In this document: positions 14,358 through 30,602 of the stretch, piece by piece
Layout: each line of letters starts with the position of its first letter
Numbering within the stretch: position 1 is the first letter of the stretch
Assembly (NCBI GenBank): GCA_043808565.1
Contig: JAZDEQ010000016.1
Location: 1 to 43,767 of the forward strand
Length of the DNA stretch: 43,767 nt
Origin: Candidatus Uhrbacteria bacterium
GTDB lineage: Bacteria > Patescibacteriota > Patescibacteriia > UBA9934 > GWF2-40-263
Direction: 5' to 3'
Position numbers and translations under genes: made by a program
Notes under the pieces: generated by a model
Databases searched by the model: none
Seen by the model: the letters and a program-made list of their open reading frames with translations, nothing else
What the model was told of the DNA's origin: nothing

Positions 14358-14438
14358 CCCCTCTCTCTTGTCTCTCCCCCGGGGAGAGAGGATTAAATTA
14401 AGCCCCTCTCCCCGGGGGAGAGGTTGGGTGAGGGGTTG
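14358..14438. repeat. Family D C/T-rich double-hairpin element, copy 1 (empty site)
   Basis: CCCCTCTCTCTTGTCTCTCCCCCGGGGAGAGAGGATTAAATTAAGCCCCTCTCCCCGGGGGAGAGGTTGGGTGAGGGG; near-identical copy at 30487-30597. Confidence 0.9.
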
Positions 14439-14472
14439 GAGCGGAGGGGTTAGGGGTGAGGATTTAAAAAAC

Positions 14473-15768: not shown

Positions 15769-15874
15769 AAAAATTAATTAAAACCACCCCCGCCGTCGCT
15801 TGTGGCAAGCTATGGCGGGCACAGCCTTCCCCCTCCTTTAAAAAAACAAGGAGGAGGGGATGGACGTTAGAAAT

Positions 15875-17279: not shown

Positions 17280-18517
<1,238 letters not shown>

Positions 18518-22094: not shown

Positions 22095-24020
22095 TTACCA
22101 ATTCACTACACCGTTTTTTATTTCTTCTTGCAAACTTTCATCGCTCCAACTTGCCAATCTCTCCAAAGCCGCAGAATATTCTTCTTCAGTGGCTGGTCGA
22201 GGAAAATAACCGTCAATTTTGGCTGGTAAAAGTTCGACTGATTTCTCTTCTCCGTTCCAACCAAGACGGACTACCAGGGATTCGTTTTCATCTTCACCAA
22301 ATTGGTCAAAAATAAAATTTCCCAGTGAGTAAAAAATCAATCCGTCTTTATATTTTTCAATACCTTCCAAAACGTGCGGATGGTGACCGATAATTACGTC
22401 AGCTCCGGCGTCGATGGCGGCGTGGGCTAATTCGACTTGCTGGCTGGTTGGTTTATGTTGGTACTCATTACCCCAATGAAAAGAAACCAAAATCAGGTCA
22501 GCTTGATTTTTTAAAGGTGAAATAATTTCCGTCAAAGTCGTGGTAGCCATTTTCCAAATTGTCGTATCAAAAGCTAAAAAAGCCAGACGCTGCCCAGCGG
22601 CTTCGGCAAAAACTGGTGCCCCGTCGTTTCCATAACCACCAACCGGCTCAACTCCACCTGCCTTCAGATAAATCAACGATTCGTCCCAAGCCGCCCGACC
22701 GTAATCGCCGATATGATTATTGGTCACGGAAACATGGGTCATGCCAAAATAATTTAAAACATCAATCCGCGCTGGGTCGGCTTTAAAACGAATTTCTTTG
22801 CTACTTTCCATGGTCGAAGTAGACAAAACACTTTCAAGGTTAGCAAAAACCAAATCACTGTTTGCCAGTGATGGCGCAATTTTAGAAAAAGCCTCATCAA
22901 CTGAAACTCTTTTTAATTTACCGCCAACCGCTCGCGACAGCATTACATCGCCAACCAGAGAAATCATAAATGGTTTCTCGCGGGCTGGCGCAAAAAAAAT
23001 CATATAACTTGTCCCCGGTTCATTGGTTTCTCCAGTTACCTCTCCACTGTGACTGTGCCAAATCAATTCATTGTCCCAATTATTTTTTTCTGACCACAAA
23101 AGAAAACTATCTAAAACAAATGGCGAGTCTAAGAAAGTTTCATTTAAAACATCGATTTTGCCATAATCACGAAAGTTCATTAACTGCCGCACAGTCTCAT
23201 CGTTTTTAAAAGCGGCTTCAGTGGCCAAACCATGAGAAAAATCCAGACTAAAAATTATCAAAGCGTCAGCTGGTAAATTTTGTTCCAAAGTCGAAACCAA
23301 AGCTCGAGCTTCTTTTTCTCCAGCCTTTGATTTGGCAATAATTGGAACGATGGGCACATCTGGGAAGGTCTTGGCAATAAAAGGAATGAAAGTACCAACT
23401 GAATGTTCATTGTCAAAAGACGACGGTTCGTCCTTTACAATTCCGCTAGAAACCAAAGTCGAAACTATTTCGTCAGAAGTTTTCACTATACCAAAATCAG
23501 TTTGATAATCGTTTGAAGTTGTTTGAATTAGAGCGTCGCCTTGATTTTCATGAGCCGCACCAACAACAACAATGACCGATGGCTCGGGATTATTTTCTAT
23601 TATTTTTTGCCAATGTTCAGCGAGTTGTGAGGCCAGGAGAGTGTGGTGAGGGAGGATGGCGGATTTAATTTCCTCGCCGTTCATGCCCTCACTTCCCGAC
23701 TTCTCGTCAACCGCCTTACACCTCACCCCCTGCCCCTCTCCTTCGTCCGCCGTCGCCAGGGCTTTGGCGGACAAGCAAAGAGAAGTGGGAATCATATCGG
23801 CGGCGGCGGTGTAAATTTCTCGGAGGCCGCTGATTTGGGAAATGTCGATTAGAGGTTCGGGGTCTAACCCCCTCTGTATCTCCCCCTTGTTAAAACCTGG
23901 AAGGGGGAGATGAAAAATATTGATTATGGCTAAAATAAAAATAATCAAAAAACCAAAAAACAAACACCACGTTTTTTTGGTTTTAATTTTTTGAAGAAAA
24001 TTACATTTTAGATTGTCCAT
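22095..24020 (-). CDS. Membrane-anchored AmmeMemoRadiSam protein B (MEMO1-like) + CapA/PGA_cap metallophosphatase fusion
   Basis: ILPHH, EHS, SLDFSH (MEMO); GDVML, NLES, NNHIGDYG, HWGNEY, GHHPHV, YSLGNF (CapA). Start placed at ATG 24020. Confidence 0.88.
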   Translation of the reverse strand: MDNLKCNFLQKIKTKKTWCLFFGFLIIFILAIINIFHLPLPGFNKGEIQRGLDPEPLIDISQISGLREIYTAAADMIPTSLCLSAKALATADEGEGQGVRCKAVDEKSGSEGMNGEEIKSAILPHHTLLASQLAEHWQKIIENNPEPSVIVVVGAAHENQGDALIQTTSNDYQTDFGIVKTSDEIVSTLVSSGIVKDEPSSFDNEHSVGTFIPFIAKTFPDVPIVPIIAKSKAGEKEARALVSTLEQNLPADALIIFSLDFSHGLATEAAFKNDETVRQLMNFRDYGKIDVLNETFLDSPFVLDSFLLWSEKNNWDNELIWHSHSGEVTGETNEPGTSYMIFFAPAREKPFMISLVGDVMLSRAVGGKLKRVSVDEAFSKIAPSLANSDLVFANLESVLSTSTMESSKEIRFKADPARIDVLNYFGMTHVSVTNNHIGDYGRAAWDESLIYLKAGGVEPVGGYGNDGAPVFAEAAGQRLAFLAFDTTIWKMATTTLTEIISPLKNQADLILVSFHWGNEYQHKPTSQQVELAHAAIDAGADVIIGHHPHVLEGIEKYKDGLIFYSLGNFIFDQFGEDENESLVVRLGWNGEEKSVELLPAKIDGYFPRPATEEEYSAALERLASWSDESLQEEIKNGVVNW

Positions 24021-24037
24021 AAAATCGGAAGTTACTG

Positions 24038-24078
24038 GATTGCCACGTCGTTCCGAGGCGTCACTCCTCGCAATGACG
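24038..24078. repeat. Half copy of family C element
   Basis: GATTGCCACGTCG…CTCCTCGCAATGACG, as in 29599-29670. Confidence 0.85.
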
Positions 24079-24142
24079 GAGTGGTCGTGGATTGGCCGAA
24101 GAAAAAAACGAAAGAAGAGGGTCAAATCAGACCCTCTTCAGA

Positions 24143-27100
24143 TTATTCATTAATTGTCATCGCTGTTTCAATTGAATGATTGTTATCGTTCGGATCACGA
24201 ACCGAACGAATGTAGACTGGTTCGGCCATATAAGTACCTGGTGTTACAACACGAGCATAATAAGTCAGAGTGTAAGGCTCGCACCAATCACGACCAAACT
24301 CTTCGCTGTTGCTGACAAAGAAAGTCACGCGTTGGCTTTCAGCGACCGAAGGATAATTCACACACTTTTCTTCCCACAACCAATTTCCAACCGGGGTCAC
24401 CAGAGACAAACCAGACGGCAGAACATCAGTAATTTCAAAAGTCTCAAAAACATTTTTATCTGGCTCAGGAATTACTTCTTCTTTGAGTGGAACATCCCAA
24501 AGCGAATCACCTTGAGTTGTCTGTTCCGGACCAGTGTTATCAATAATCAAGTTTGGATTTTTAACTACCGGAACTTTAAATTTCACTTCGACCTTAACCA
24601 AATCGCCAGCCTTAATCGCTTGACCGGGCTGACCGCCAACAACTGAATAGCTTCGAGCTAAACCAAGTTTCTCATTAACCACCGCATTGTCATCAACCAA
24701 CGGCGAGTCAAAACGACTAACCGCCACCACACTGCCCTTTTGAACTTCAGGATTAAACGCAACTAATTCATCTGGCGATAACGCCAGGGTTACCGTTTCA
24801 TTATTTTCCAAAGTCAATTCCCGACGCTCACCCTCAAGCGTATAGGCAACTTTTACCTCACTGTCTTTCAAAGACTTAATCGCTTCTTTAATAAACAAAG
24901 CTTGATCAAGCACCAAAAGCGTACTGCCTTGGTATTGATTAGTCACATAATCATGCAAAGCGTCACGATCACTTTCACGTAAAGCCGCGGCCAAAATGGC
25001 CATTAAAGCCGTTTGTTCACCTTGGGTTTCAATATCATCGGCCGGCAAATAGGCATAACCAAAATCTTTATTCACGCCCTTAATCAAGTCTCGATAAATC
25101 GCTCGTGCTCCTTCATCAGCGCCAGAAAAATGCAAAGCTAAAGACAAGAATAATTTTTCATTTGTCGACAAATCATTTTCTGCGGTTAATCGCTGGACTT
25201 CAGATAAAACTGGTTCGCCCAGAGCGGCCATGGCGGCATAGGCCTTAATGGCTTCTTCACGGCCAACTTCCATGCCACTTTGTCGACTGTAGTAAAGCAT
25301 GTTACCAAAATAATTTTTAAGGCTATCTTGATCAAAAGGTGTACCGCCAGCCAGAGCTACCTTGACCGAAGTATCAAAATCCGTGTCACCGTAAGGCAAA
25401 AGTCTGACGCCCTGATCTTGATAAGATGAAACCGAAAATTCTGAATCAGAATTTTGTTCACCAAATTTTTCATTCAAAATTTTTGTGGCCACGGCTTGGG
25501 TCATAATTTCGTCAGCTCGGTTGCCAAAACTGCCAGCCAAATAACTTAACTCCGAATAATATTTTCCAGCTCCACCATCAATAAAAGTCACTTTGGTTAA
25601 ACCATTGGCCGAACCGGAAATTTTTTCTTGACCACCAAGTATTACACTGGAAACTACTGGCTTCACCAAATACGAAGGCAGAATTTCAATCGACCGAGTG
25701 ATCGTATCGGTTAAATTACCAGACGAACCAGTAATCGTTATCTCGTGTTGGCCTTCAGAAAGTTTTGGTAAGGTTAAGCCAACAGTTTTGGCGACCGTGG
25801 AAATTTCTTTTTTCTCAATATCAGCATCAGGAATCGAAATGGTATATTCGACCGGATCATTCAAACCAACGTTAACTCCAGCACTACGGATGAGAACCGT
25901 TGGTTGATCATCAACTAAATAATTTTCCCGCATAACTGGCACAACAAAGAATGGCATGGAAGCCTCAAGATTTATTTTAATGTCACCGGCCATTTTTTCT
26001 TGAGAATTTAAGGCTTGGGCCGTGACTCGCCAGGAAGTAATATTATCAGGCAGTTTGAAAGAATAATTCGCCCGACCATTTTTGTCGGTTTCAATAGTGA
26101 CAAAATCAGCAGTGTCTTTAAACAAAGCTCGTCCACGTTCGCCGCCACCACCACCTTCGGCCAGACTGGTGGTCGCAAAGTCTTTAATGTTTTCACTAAC
26201 CTTGGTCATCAAAACTCCAGAACTAACATTTTGATAAAGATCGCTCAACGGATGAACATCTTCACCCACCAAGGCATAAAAAGCTTCGTCAACAACATTT
26301 AAATTGACTTCAGCGACTACTGGCTGATCGTCTTTATTAGTCACGACAACGTTTAAACTAACATCTTCACCAGGTCGATAAGTTTCCTTGTCAGCCTTAA
26401 CTTCAACTTTTAATTCTTTTTCTGAATTGTCATACCAAACGTAAAGACCGTTAGCCGAACCTGATCCACCGCCATACCGATCATTAACTTGAGCATAAGC
26501 TTGACCATCAAAATACACTCCATAAACTTCAAGATTAGGAACCAAAGCTTGGTCAAAATTAAAAGAATAAGCACTACTTTTCATCACAGAAATCTGTTGA
26601 ATGCCTTGACGGGCTTGGAAGTAAAGAAAATTACCATTTTCTCCTAAAGAAAAGGGGGCGTCTTCTTTAAAAACCTGTAAATGAACCGGGTCGTTTATTT
26701 TATAACCGGGAAAGCCTGGGTTATTTTCTGCTTCTAAATTTTTCAATTGTAATGATTTGTCGTCTTTAGCTTCAATACCCCGATTCCAAAGATAGGCATC
26801 TAATTTATCGGTCTTTCCCGCTTCATCACTGGCTCGTAAAATAACTCGATAACTAGCTTCAGGGTTGGCTGAAAAAGTATAAAATGCTTCGCCGTTATTA
26901 TCAGTAATTAAAGAAAAATCTTTAATTTTATTTTCTATTCGATCGTATTGATATTGAGTGACAGTTTCCTTACGAATAAAATCATATGTTGTGCCTGATT
27001 CTGTTTTAACATAAGTAATTTCTCGAAGCTCGCCATTAATCAATTGACTCGGCTTAACAATGGGAGCAAAAATTTCGGCATCATAAGAATCAATTGCTTG

Positions 27101-29440
27101 AACATTTCTGGTGGTTACTTTAATTGTCCCAACCCCATCTTTGATTCCGGATGCGTCCCAATCTTCCTGAAGATAAACCTTAGGGCCAAAAACCATTAGG
27201 TTTGTGCTAGCCTGAATATTAGCCTCTTCGGCTCGGGCGGGATAAACATTTAACCAATAAGAATTTGGGTAACGGTAATCGATTGCCGAATAAGAAATCA
27301 TCACATTACCTCGGGCATTACCCGCCGCATCAAGAGTTAGTTCTTGATTGCCAGCTCCAGTTTCCACCACCACTGGTAAACCGTTAACCGGAGTGCCGTC
27401 GAAAAACTCTCCGTGAATCATATAGCCGACACTCTCGCCGGCAAAGACGGCGTCTTTGTCTGTTTCAATTGAAAGTGAAAAAGCTGGTTTAACATATTCA
27501 GAAACTGAAACACCTCGTGATCTAATGATTTCGTCATCAACTTTTACTTGAACATCATAATAACCAGCTGGCACAGCCTCGAGAGATAATTCGCCCTCAA
27601 AAGTTCCTTGATCAGAAACCTCAATCACTGTTTCGTCAAAAATCAAACGATTTTGATCCGAAAAATCACAACTAAATGGCGAGCACCAACCATTTTCACC
27701 AATAATCACCCGAACGGTTTTTGGTTTAGTGCCATTTGCACGATTTTCTACATAACCCCAAAGTTTAATAGTATCGTTTGGTTTATACATTGGTCGATCG
27801 GTATAAAGATATGACCAATTTTGTTCGTATGGTTGAACCAGTGGTGTGCTTGTCTGATTTTCAAAATTACGAAAATCATAATTACCATCTAGTGGTAAAA
27901 TAATCGCTTCAGAACCAATTCGAACTTCCAATAAATCACGTTGAGAATATTCTTCAGAAGATAAATCGGCCGGTGTATTTAAAGAAGCTAAACCATTTTC
28001 ATCAGTTGTTTTTAAAGTCTCATCAAAATCAATAAATTTAACACTGGTGCCGGCCAAAGGACCATGAGTTTCTGCACTATTCACCCAAACCAAGGTCTGA
28101 TTGATGGCTTTGGCAGCATAAGCTGTGACCTGACTCGACTCGATAAGCGCAAAATGTTTTTGTCCGTCGTAAGTAAAAACCGCGACATAATAACCTCGAG
28201 GTAGTGGGGCTGGGAACAAAAGATAATCACGATATTCGCTTTGAACACGACTGGCTTCAAAAGAGGCTGTCACCGGCATTTTCGCTAAATCAACCACCCC
28301 TTCGGCTGAAGTATAGGCTGTCCAATCAGCATCACGAGTTTTTTTATAGGCAACTAAATATTGTTGATAGTCAGAAGTCTCGGCCGCGGAAATAAATTGA
28401 TGAACTTCAACTTTAACCGGCGGATCTGGTTGGCCATCATTGCGCCAAATAGAATAATTTACCGCCACCGTGTCATTAGGTGTAGTAATAATATATTTGT
28501 CATCGAGCCAAAAAGAAAAGCCGGGGTTCGTATCGCCTTGATTGGTTTCAAAAGTAAAAGTGTAATCATTGCCCAAAGTTTCATCACTCCCTTTTAAGCC
28601 AAGCGCGCCAGATAAAGTGGCTGTATAAACGGTTTTGGTTTTTAATTTTTCCTCAGGCACAAAAACAAAAGTTTTACGAAACTGTTCTACATGACCTTTG
28701 ACTGCCGGCAAAATCGTAAAAGCTTTTTCGAAATCTTTTAAATTAATGTTTTCGTAATTAAAACTTATCTCAATGCCAGTTTCAATTGGCACTTCGCCTT
28801 GATGATTGCCTGGTAAAGTTCCAACGATACGAAAAGGACTCTTAACTTGAAAAGCCCAATTATATGGACGCTCAACCGTTTCTCCGGTTAGTGAAGTGGT
28901 CTCAGAGTTTAAAGAAAAAGTTACAACTTTAGCCACGGGTAAAGTTTCGTTAAAAGCAATTCGTACTTTATTAGCCGAAACTTGTTGCAGATCGTAATCA
29001 ACCCCAGTGTTGGTGACTAGATTTTTTTGAACAAAATTTGTGTCGATTTTATCTTTACTTTCTAAAAGAAAAGCAGAATTATTTTCCACGCCAAGCGAAT
29101 CAGCCGCTTCGGCAACTAAAGTAAAATTATCCTGGGCATAAACGGTTTTAATGCCAAAAAACGGTTGGAAAATTGTGGTGGTAATAACAGCGACCACCAG
29201 AACAGTTAAGCCAAAAGCGGCCCATTTGGCACCAAGTCTTTCCTTATCGAAAAAAGGCAAAGACCAACGAAATGTCTTAGACATAGAAACGGCCTGCCGG
29301 GCGGCTTGTAAGCGGGCAAAAAGCGCCTCTTTAAAGCCAGGCCGCGGCATAATATTTACAGATTTAAGGTGACGAGAAAAAACCTCGTCTAATTCTGTAA
29401 ACGAACCGTCGGTTTTTTTATTACGATTAAAAGGAAACAT
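24143..29440 (-). CDS. Membrane-anchored alpha-2-macroglobulin-family protein with N-terminal Ig-like (Big_5-like) domains; no thioester motif
   Basis: YLYTDRPMYKP (MG2), EYVKP, YRPGE..VVDEA, FKDTA.F..LPDNITSWRVTA (A2M), DVLPSGL, YYARVVTPG.Y.AEP; no CxEQ anywhere. Confidence 0.9.
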   Translation of the reverse strand: MFPFNRNKKTDGSFTELDEVFSRHLKSVNIMPRPGFKEALFARLQAARQAVSMSKTFRWSLPFFDKERLGAKWAAFGLTVLVVAVITTTIFQPFFGIKTVYAQDNFTLVAEAADSLGVENNSAFLLESKDKIDTNFVQKNLVTNTGVDYDLQQVSANKVRIAFNETLPVAKVVTFSLNSETTSLTGETVERPYNWAFQVKSPFRIVGTLPGNHQGEVPIETGIEISFNYENINLKDFEKAFTILPAVKGHVEQFRKTFVFVPEEKLKTKTVYTATLSGALGLKGSDETLGNDYTFTFETNQGDTNPGFSFWLDDKYIITTPNDTVAVNYSIWRNDGQPDPPVKVEVHQFISAAETSDYQQYLVAYKKTRDADWTAYTSAEGVVDLAKMPVTASFEASRVQSEYRDYLLFPAPLPRGYYVAVFTYDGQKHFALIESSQVTAYAAKAINQTLVWVNSAETHGPLAGTSVKFIDFDETLKTTDENGLASLNTPADLSSEEYSQRDLLEVRIGSEAIILPLDGNYDFRNFENQTSTPLVQPYEQNWSYLYTDRPMYKPNDTIKLWGYVENRANGTKPKTVRVIIGENGWCSPFSCDFSDQNRLIFDETVIEVSDQGTFEGELSLEAVPAGYYDVQVKVDDEIIRSRGVSVSEYVKPAFSLSIETDKDAVFAGESVGYMIHGEFFDGTPVNGLPVVVETGAGNQELTLDAAGNARGNVMISYSAIDYRYPNSYWLNVYPARAEEANIQASTNLMVFGPKVYLQEDWDASGIKDGVGTIKVTTRNVQAIDSYDAEIFAPIVKPSQLINGELREITYVKTESGTTYDFIRKETVTQYQYDRIENKIKDFSLITDNNGEAFYTFSANPEASYRVILRASDEAGKTDKLDAYLWNRGIEAKDDKSLQLKNLEAENNPGFPGYKINDPVHLQVFKEDAPFSLGENGNFLYFQARQGIQQISVMKSSAYSFNFDQALVPNLEVYGVYFDGQAYAQVNDRYGGGSGSANGLYVWYDNSEKELKVEVKADKETYRPGEDVSLNVVVTNKDDQPVVAEVNLNVVDEAFYALVGEDVHPLSDLYQNVSSGVLMTKVSENIKDFATTSLAEGGGGGERGRALFKDTADFVTIETDKNGRANYSFKLPDNITSWRVTAQALNSQEKMAGDIKINLEASMPFFVVPVMRENYLVDDQPTVLIRSAGVNVGLNDPVEYTISIPDADIEKKEISTVAKTVGLTLPKLSEGQHEITITGSSGNLTDTITRSIEILPSYLVKPVVSSVILGGQEKISGSANGLTKVTFIDGGAGKYYSELSYLAGSFGNRADEIMTQAVATKILNEKFGEQNSDSEFSVSSYQDQGVRLLPYGDTDFDTSVKVALAGGTPFDQDSLKNYFGNMLYYSRQSGMEVGREEAIKAYAAMAALGEPVLSEVQRLTAENDLSTNEKLFLSLALHFSGADEGARAIYRDLIKGVNKDFGYAYLPADDIETQGEQTALMAILAAALRESDRDALHDYVTNQYQGSTLLVLDQALFIKEAIKSLKDSEVKVAYTLEGERRELTLENNETVTLALSPDELVAFNPEVQKGSVVAVSRFDSPLVDDNAVVNEKLGLARSYSVVGGQPGQAIKAGDLVKVEVKFKVPVVKNPNLIIDNTGPEQTTQGDSLWDVPLKEEVIPEPDKNVFETFEITDVLPSGLSLVTPVGNWLWEEKCVNYPSVAESQRVTFFVSNSEEFGRDWCEPYTLTYYARVVTPGTYMAEPVYIRSVRDPNDNNHSIETAMTINE

Positions 29441-29483: not shown

Positions 29484-29530
29484 TTATTATGAATTTATTT
29501 TTTAAACTTAGACGGCGGTTCTCTGCCCGC

Positions 29531-29670
29531 CGTCATTGCGAGGAGCTCTGAGTTCGTAAGGCGACGCGGCAATCTAGTAATATCCAGACGCGGTTATTAG
29601 ATTGCCACGTCGCTCCACCTTCGCTAAAGCTACGGCGGACACGTCGGCGGCCTCGCTCCTCGCAATGACG
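29531..29670. repeat. Complete family C palindromic element with nested mini-hairpin
   Basis: 16-bp perfect TIR CGTCATTGCGAGGAGC; inner IR GCGACGCGGCAATCTA/TAGATTGCCACGTCGC. Confidence 0.9.
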
Positions 29671-30275: not shown

Positions 30276-30486
30276 TAATTCCGTAGCAAAAAAACAAAAA
30301 CGCCGCCAGACCTCTATTAGAGATAACGGTTTAATGATTGAATTATTACTGGATGTAGAAATCGTAGAAAGCGTAGAAAACGTAGATTTTTTGTTAAACA
30401 CGAAGAGTAAGCCATCATTCGCTCTTGTGTTAATCATCCTATCAAAAAATGCTTGGACTGGCTAATTATTTTTCTCACTCGTTAAC

Positions 30487-30597
30487 CCCCTCTCTCTTAT
30501 CTCTCCCCCGGGGAGAGAAGATTAAATTAAGCCCCTTTCCCTGGGGGAGAGGTTGGCCTGCCCGTCCGTAGCCCAGCGAAGGCGGGGTGAGGGGTTG
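30487..30597. repeat. Family D element copy 2 carrying a 30-bp insertion at 30557-30586
   Basis: Aligns to 14358-14438 apart from the insert and about 4 substitutions. Confidence 0.9.
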
Positions 30598-30602
30598 AGA
30601 GC

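Follow-up and report, generated by a model that had tools for sequence, protein, structure and literature searches.

The stretch of DNA analysed here, referred to as the window, is a contig of 43,767 nucleotides (JAZDEQ010000016.1) from a Candidatus Uhrbacteria bacterium. It contains two copies of a repeat that we term family D, the second of which is interrupted by a 30-nt hairpin module at 30557-30586; a near-identical copy of this module lies within the tgt gene, in an array of octamers, and three related hairpins are found inside other palindromes (Table 1). The genome that holds the window (G000, in which the window is contig C16) has been assembled into 1,165,426 bases on 84 contigs, with 41% G+C and a completeness rated at 100%. 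It is compared with four congeners (G001-G004) and an outgroup (G005); relatives measure 0.7-1.3 Mb, and L-numbers denote extracted loci. Our main observation is that a structured, directional module of ~30 nt has entered many unrelated sites without consistent duplication and has bloomed in one genus.

An earlier note, made from the letters of the window, had described family D copy 2 as copy 1 plus an inserted 30-mer, and this description is exact: the module splits copy 2 at the very position where copy 1 is empty. The same note had pointed to a 29/30 copy in tgt whose removal restores the periodicity of the octamers. This too was borne out, and with the tgt module taken out, the run at 17843-17914 reads GTGATGGA GTCATGGA GTGGTGG/A GTGGTGGA GTGATGGA (the slash marks the point of removal). 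A search of the window for CCTGCCCGTCCGTAGCCCAGCGAAGGCGGG with up to three mismatches returned these two matches only, at 30557 and 17866, against 0.00 expected from 100 shuffles. The module at 30557-30586 consists of the tag CCTG, an outer stem in which one T is bulged, CCCG(T)CC/GGCGGG, and the loop GTAGCCCAGCGAA. The three related hairpins are real as well; each lies in another palindrome, all are minus-strand variants that differ in loop length, and their coordinates have been adjusted to those in Table 1. The hairpin at 23746-23775 occupies the loop between the arms of a palindrome (CTCTCC/GGAGAG), where it is inserted at G^CGAAGG (the caret marks the insertion point here and below), and the one at 29614-29645 lies within one arm of a hairpin doublet tagged with CGTC, the second arm of which is empty. 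The CGTC-tagged hairpin type is defined in PMC3733652 and PMC11893778.

Table 1. The module, its relatives, their host repeats and tgt in the window
Feature	Position	Strand	Description
30-nt hairpin module	30557..30586	+	reads CCTGCCCGTCCGTAGCCCAGCGAAGGCGGG; inserted in family D copy 2
Second module copy, 29/30 identity	17866..17895	+	begins CTTG (one base changed); in frame within tgt, antisense to tgt
Family D copy 2 (host repeat)	30484..30599	+	split by module at GAGGTTGG^GTGAGGGG
Family D copy 1	14358..14440	+	GAGGTTGG directly followed by GTGAGGGG; empty site between 14427 and 14428
Octamer array (GTGRTGGA)n, host of tgt module	17843..17914	+	module sits after ..GTGG, before AGTG
tgt (queuine tRNA-ribosyltransferase), 399 aa	17280..18479	-	Pfam TGT, 1e-142
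Long-loop family member	15789..15824	-	CCCGCC ATAGC-TTG-CCA-CAA-GCGAC GGCGGG; tag GCTGTG
14-nt-loop family member	23746..23775	-	TCCGCC AAAGCCCTGGCGAC GGCGGA; tag CTTG
Family member	29614..29645	-	TCCGCC GTAGCTTTAGCGAA GGTGGA; tag GACGTG
CGTC-tagged (NTS/SRM-like) inverted doublet	29530..29670	.	CGTCATTGCGAG...GCAATC / GATTGC...CTCGCAATGACG; hosts the 29614-29645 copy

G000 was scanned for the 30-mer by Hamming distance. Exact copies occur in three unrelated contexts: C16:30557 lies in family D, C63:14802 in an octamer array of a methyltransferase gene and C67:36418 in a CGTC-type hairpin, of which it occupies the loop; a copy with two mismatches lies at C41:9575. The loop motif [AG][AT]AGC[CT]C[AG]GC[AG]A[ACT] has 50 matches in the genome, against three for the reversed motif, and 44 of the 50 have at least four of six Watson-Crick stem pairs. 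When the definition was widened to allow 2-12 nt between AGC and GCRA, with a 6-bp stem required, 89 copies were found in the 1.17 Mb of G000 and three in the reversed-motif control. Their loops measure 13 nt (41 copies), 14 nt (19), 19 nt (20) or other lengths (9), and the length of the module is ~26-40 nt.

Each module has an unpaired tag at its 5' end, which reads C(C/T)TG or CGTG. Next come a covarying outer stem of 6 bp, an internal loop of 3x3 nt in which GWA faces GAM, and a small inner stem (GC..GC, 2-6 bp) that carries an apical loop of 3-4 nt. Within the internal loop, the inner stem-loop is immediately preceded by the tetranucleotide GTAG (or ATAG/GAAG). Loops of 19 nt read, for example, AGC-TCG-CCA-CGA-GCG or AGC-TTG-CCA-CAA-GCG, so that the ‘loop’ is itself an inner stem-loop set off by the GWA/GAM internal loop, and the two-tier fold is also drawn by ViennaRNA with DNA parameters. 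The 26 distinct outer stems have 96.8% standard pairs; when the partners were shuffled 1000 times, the figure was 80.3 +/- 2.0% and reached 87.2% at most. The third pair takes every Watson-Crick form (G-C 10, C-G 5, T-A 4 and A-T 2), the inner stems covary in the same manner (TCG/CGA, TTG/CAA, TCTG/CAGA), and one bulged base follows the second pair from the loop in eight of 44 copies, the 30-mer included. The long variant at 15789-15824, with a DNA fold of -10.4 kcal/mol (z -3.84), is the only variant that beats shuffled sequences. At the gathering threshold, an Rfam search of the window returned tRNA only and no family for the module, and ten cross-phylum loci searched at E<=1 gave two sub-threshold chance matches and nothing else; a described RNA family was rejected as the identity of the module because no Rfam family fits it.

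The sites at which copies have landed are of several types. The family D site, GGYTGG^GTGAGGGG, is empty in nine of 11 D copies and filled in two, the window copy at 30557 and one on C79. Over its D part of 70 nt, the filled window copy shares 97% identity with the empty C26 copy and only ~86% with the filled C79 copy; the filled copies are thus not mutual closest relatives, which suggests that one site was hit twice, independently. Copies in octamer arrays share one phase in all five cases (own tgt, C63, C25, tgt of G004 and G004:C19). Self-nested copies always lie at ..CCCRG^CGAA, with six in G000 (C25, C57:12520, C63:12349, C83, C79 and C21:6331, the last a triple nest) and self-nesting also at L036, a locus titled Uhrbacteria; they occupy one loop position inside other copies whose stems differ. 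The apex or loop of other palindromes has been entered at G^CG(A/G) on C28 (CTTG^CGAAGG), in the window at 23746-23775 and at L111 (CTCCGG^CGGGAG), and the loops of CGTC-tagged, NTS-like hairpins serve as hosts at C12, C32:38531, C46:4620, C67:36418 and 29614-29645 of the window.

Structured DNA is entered at its unpaired loops or junctions, and coding DNA where the protein has flexible loops. The commonest form of the site is G^CG(A/G)(A/G), as in the module's own loop and in the apex of other palindromes. All nine site types examined allow a reading in which a G closes the left flank, and no longer motif is constant; in gatB, the flank becomes AATG^ after a shift of 1 nt within a 2-nt ambiguity. 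The flanks are complementary over at least 8 nt in 7.5-8.8% of copies, compared with ~1% in permuted controls; the value of 8.8% stands against 0.9% in its control. One further copy, a 38-nt module, sits in the anticodon loop of a 3' remnant of tRNA-Thr(TGT) (L115:282-383, corresponding to G000:C21:4481-4582), which adjoins the intact gene. The intact tRNA-Thr reads TTTTGTAAACC and the remnant reads TTTTG, the 38 nt and TAAACC; ARAGORN made no call on the remnant.

The terminal GG of the 30-mer had been taken as compatible with a duplication of 2 bp. As a rule, this is not supported, given that the GG overlap is ambiguous and that the two informative junctions lack a target duplication: the tRNA remnant reads TTTTG^...GGCGGA^TAAACC, and C63:12349 reads CCCGG^CTTG...GGTGGA^CGAAGG. 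Since there is no duplication where the end of the module differs from the flank, the GG overlap provides no evidence for one of 2 bp. A separate observation concerns C14:3708 and C48:3034 of G000, which are near-identical hairpin copies. Downstream of each stand arrays whose units resemble GATTAGTA, so that the hairpin family is accompanied by short tandem arrays of a second type.

Genes have been entered as well. Of the 44 short-loop copies, seven occur in frame within genes that are confirmed by Pfam domains on both sides or around the copy (tgt, fmt, an M16 peptidase gene, gatB, dnaG, dprA and a tRNA U5-methyltransferase gene), four in sense and three in antisense orientation, and a length that is a multiple of three together with five open frames out of six allows the module to be read through. 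In gatB, the copy comprises 30 nt at AATGA^GGAAGC; it is absent from all four congeners and from the outgroup G005 and is therefore a derived insertion in unique DNA. When Tgt is aligned with solved structures, residues 2-172 and 212-398 match, and residues 173-211 (the array and the hairpin), which stand in place of a connection of ~8 residues, have no counterpart. Within the genus, G003 and G002 have nothing inserted in this tgt loop, and G000, G001 and G004 have different hairpins at different places in it, with inverted hairpin doublets in the tgt of G001 and G004. The loop in fmt contains a different repeat in each species compared: octamers in G004 (L262), octamers and an inverted hairpin doublet in G001 (L263) and a CAGTCCCT-type repeat in G003 (L264). 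Another palindrome (..CCATGCACCGGACGGTGCATGG..) is carried by the gatB of G003 (L257), so that one and the same protein loop has received different small repeats in different species. At the 30557 site itself, the synteny of the sigma-factor gene and the downstream open reading frame (ORF) is not kept in the congeners.

The boundary of the family around the genus is sharp. A 17-nt loop pattern matched 30, 33, 11, 6 and 23 times in the five members of the genus, but never in 36 further genomes from the same family and order, nor in 400 genomes drawn across the phylum. A 25-nt pattern matched 50 stretches in a collection of one genome per species, from Patescibacteria, Verrucomicrobiota, Bacteroidota, Acidobacteriota and others, and at least 122 stretches in metagenome contigs; there were no exact matches in viral contigs. 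Many of the 50 stretches share the tag GCCTG(C). In a set of 120 distinct cross-phylum copies, the five bases upstream are most often CCTGC (24), GCCTG (9) or CTTGC (7), and since these tag pentamers are far above chance, many of the cross-phylum copies are true relatives, even if some matches in very GC-rich genomes may be due to chance. Composite repeats are also present in metagenome-assembled genome records of Patescibacteria/Uhrbacteria. Our literature search, which was not exhaustive, found no description of such elements in Patescibacteria.

These observations are explained most simply by a REP-sized module that was inserted, a reading that they support: the exact 30-mers in three unrelated hosts, the empty D sites, the 97% identity of the filled window copy to an empty one and the bare gatB genes all favor insertion. 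The earlier note had gone further and proposed an element of this size that targets other repeats; that part needs correction, since repeats are not the only targets and the gatB copy lies in unique coding DNA. We consider that the 30-mer is probably a copy of a non-autonomous family of selfish hairpins, inserted after the fact and handled as folded single-stranded DNA by an enzyme acting in trans. Under the mechanism that we propose, the folded single DNA strand of the module would be recognised, and either cut out or copied, by an enzyme encoded elsewhere in the genome, which would then join it into exposed single-stranded loops, 3' of a G. Once it had landed in another repeat, the module would spread passively with that repeat.

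Several results weigh against this reading. No mobilising enzyme was found, with Y1/RAYT transposases, Ssn-type GIY-YIG nucleases, DUF559 proteins and reverse transcriptases (RTs) all unlinked to the module. Beyond a single G, the target has only a weak consensus, and many junctions carry an ambiguity of one or two bases. Composites of a D-like unit with the hairpin, or of a CGTC-type hairpin with the 30-mer, are multi-copy in G001 and G004 with conserved junctions, so that a share of the copies stems from copying of the host repeat or from gene conversion rather than from fresh insertion. A lagging-strand mechanism on single-stranded DNA of the IS608 type would predict an orientation bias, and none was seen: the counts are 45 versus 29 with respect to the dominant coding strand (p 0.08) and 39 versus 42 with respect to local GC skew, both of which are only proxies in a genome of 84 contigs. 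The short form folds no better than shuffled sequences (z -0.99 for the 30-mer and -0.1 to +1.5 with flanks); since its folding energy is not significant, the case for structure rests on covariation. Lastly, G.T pairs outnumber A.C pairs among the distinct stems of G000 (13 versus 4), which fits a single-strand form, but this excess is gone in the cross-phylum sample (19 versus 15).

The search for an enzyme covered the genome, 41 relatives and 80 metagenome loci (191 kb), all of the latter being searched with the GIY-YIG, DUF559 and Y1 profiles. These loci yielded one DUF559 gene, one small GIY-YIG gene and no Y1 gene, with nothing enriched, and the neighbours identified by Pfam (101 of 302 ORFs, from 29 loci) are ordinary housekeeping genes.

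One candidate is an Ssn-type GIY-YIG nuclease. The module would then be the cognate repeat of such an enzyme, comparable to the NTS (dRS3) and SRM repeats, and a cut 5' of the hairpin would drive its spread or serve in the handling of transforming DNA. NTS repeats are recognised as single-stranded DNA by SsnA GIY-YIG nucleases, and the module is, like NTS as described in that work, a directional unit with an unpaired 5' tag followed by a hairpin (PMC11893778). Small GIY-YIG genes are indeed present, three in G000 (87-100 aa) and five to eight in congeners, and true CGTC-type hairpins coexist with the module in G000, where their NTS-like loops often host it. At L079 (G004:C11:657-3911), a GIY-YIG gene (1501-1755 of the locus) has hairpins ~250 nt and 140 nt to either side, both oriented with the gene; it is the sole locus flanked on two sides among seven in the genus, which together have three hairpins against ~1.7 expected. 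The three loci of G000, however, have no hairpin within 1.4 kb, and 30 of 36 hairpin-free relatives possess such genes; the single small GIY-YIG gene in the metagenome loci likewise speaks against the link. The SRM search pattern HGTCWY..RNCYNB is at chance level in G000 (five matches, compared with 5, 8 and 2 in three shuffled genomes), and the module does not fit it. Stem composition also sets the module apart from NTS and SRM, as do the lack of adjacency between gene and repeat, the tag and the loop length (13-21 nt), the last two being unlike those given for CGTC families in PMC3733652. We regard this account as unlikely.

It is similarly improbable that the module is a REP- or REPIN-type element moved by a RAYT or an IS200-like HUH-Y1 transposase. 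Size and hairpin form agree with REP and REPIN elements (PMC3116915, PMC3733652): an imperfect palindrome of 20-40 nt in high copy number, with some inverted doublets and, as GTAG-tagged REPs have it, a GTAG-like tetranucleotide beside a stem, which here is the inner one. Elements of the IS200/IS605 group make no target duplication, insert 3' of a short fixed sequence and have hairpins that are recognised on one strand; the module may resemble their miniature derivatives, with no duplication at the two informative junctions and a left flank readable as G, though nothing longer is constant. Some REPs lie inside genes or other palindromes (PMC3733652). G000 encodes one strong Y1_Tnp match (C31:13202-13627), yet this gene has its own, unrelated terminal hairpins. 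The earlier note had proposed looking for a RAYT or IS200 gene flanked by the hairpin, and none emerged: among eight Y1 loci (in G000, G001 and G002), no family hairpin lies within ~0.8 kb, the two pattern matches being AT-rich chance. The absence of Y1 genes from the metagenome loci agrees with this, G003 has hairpins and no Y1 match, and Y1 is present in 27 of 36 hairpin-free relatives. The module further differs from REPs and REPINs in its outer tag (C(C/T)TG or CGTG), in having GTAG in an internal loop rather than at an unpaired end, in moving as singletons rather than doublets and in not being confined to extragenic DNA (seven of 44 copies are in genes). Unlike IS200/IS605 elements, it has one hairpin instead of two different ends, a target of only a single G, no strand bias and no linked TnpA.

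The closest behavioral match is with the small dispersed repeats (SDR1-8) of Nostocaceae, to which the module may be likened by description, not by sequence. Elhai et al. in 2008 (Genome Res 18:1484), a study cited in PMC5861425, PMC4390886, PMC13756078 and PMC3116915, reportedly described SDR modules of 21-27 nt that share a secondary structure with compensatory changes and are found in tandem heptamer arrays, in other small elements and in copies of themselves; they are also said to have proposed an RNA intermediate and reverse transcription. We know of no enzyme for SDRs. In common with SDRs, the module is a structured unit of a few tens of nucleotides (~26-40 nt here) that nests in itself, resides in tandem arrays (octamers here) and inserts at a fixed base. 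It differs in having a Patescibacteria-type host of ~1.2 Mb rather than a heterocystous cyanobacterium, and in its presence in scattered phyla and in frame in essential genes. SDR5, for its part, is inserted between the third and fourth base of HIP1 (PMC4390886), and SDR-like repeats are given as reported only in Nostocaceae (PMC5861425).

Spread of the module through an RNA intermediate and reverse transcription would agree with the predominance of G.T (G.U) over A.C pairs in the stems of G000 and with the four RVT_1 matches of this genome, two of them full-length. We nevertheless consider it very improbable. G.T wobbles are tolerated in DNA hairpins too, their excess does not extend across phyla, and the genic copies run both ways. 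Neither of the two full-length RT loci has a family hairpin, and the RTs, which score below the group II intron cut-off, have no evident link to the module. That the module does not move at all, its distribution being due to deletion from fixed composites or to gene conversion between repeat copies, is hardly credible: the multi-copy composites with conserved junctions in G001 and G004 and the tendency of hairpins to favor slippage and deletion would suit such an account, but it is already strained by the gatB copy in unique coding DNA and by the copy in the anticodon loop of the tRNA remnant, and the shared loop position in copies with different stems and the exact 30-mer in three hosts count against it as well.

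Rickettsia palindromic elements (RPEs) offer another comparison. Ogata et al. in 2000 are said to have described RPEs as palindromic selfish DNA that resides within housekeeping genes without breaking the frame and is translated into an additional loop on the protein surface. The module resembles them in behavior, as it resides in frame, as a loop, in housekeeping genes. RPEs are several times longer than the module and belong to another lineage, and to our knowledge, self-nesting has not been described as typical of them. RPE-4 and RPE-6 are CGTC elements, as noted in PMC3733652.

Returning to the selfish hairpin inserted in trans, we tentatively raise the possibility that the family represents a distinct class of mobile DNA, a two-tier hairpin of ~30 nt that might be moved by a trans-acting activity which is neither RAYT nor Ssn, enter single-stranded loops without target duplication (those of other hairpins and its own, of a tRNA anticodon and of coding DNA), cross phyla and bloom in single lineages. 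If the module is really mobile, a single hairpin would be the smallest size that transposable DNA can have. The family also explains a difficulty in annotating ultra-small genomes of the candidate phyla radiation: the odd Pro/Gly/Arg-rich loops of the essential enzymes Tgt, Fmt, GatB, DnaG and DprA are translated selfish DNA and account for differences in length between orthologues. The family provides clean material for an enzyme hunt, as it combines exact copies with filled and empty sites, nests in itself at a fixed base and has a sharp genus boundary; nucleases and transposases specific to hairpins of single-stranded DNA are sought as tools, as argued in the Ssn work (PMC11893778).

DUF559 genes number five in G000 and are present in all five genomes of the genus and in 16 of 36 others. 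As the gene linked to the module, DUF559 was rejected, being flanked by family-D-like repeats without the hairpin adjacent. The free-standing DUF559 genes at C67:33594-34132, C81:931-1248 and C41:7729-8049 have such repeats (CCCCTCTCC..GGAGAGG..GGTGAGGGG) on one or both sides, an arrangement that resembles the repeat-gene-repeat layout described for ssnA and NTS and suggests that family D is a DUF559-associated repeat. A DUF559 domain (a Vsr-like endonuclease) is also found in frame at aa 267-370 of the 1411-aa leuS ORF (L275, G000:C69:10337-14572), between the catalytic core and the editing domain, where it is bracketed by translated repeats of the CCCCTCTCC/GGAGAGGGG type (..SPGPSPEGRG.., ..LPSGEGLGEV..). 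The same ORF has a NUDIX domain at aa 532-648.

Two large ORFs lie on the minus strand of the window. The hairpin at 23746-23775 corresponds to about aa 118-127 of a 676-aa ORF (22095-24125) with Memo-like and PGA_cap domains; it lies before the first domain, so that it is either translated or the true start is further downstream. A 1765-aa ORF (24143-29440) has alpha-2-macroglobulin, MG2 and bacterial Ig-like domains and is large for a genome of 1.2 Mb.

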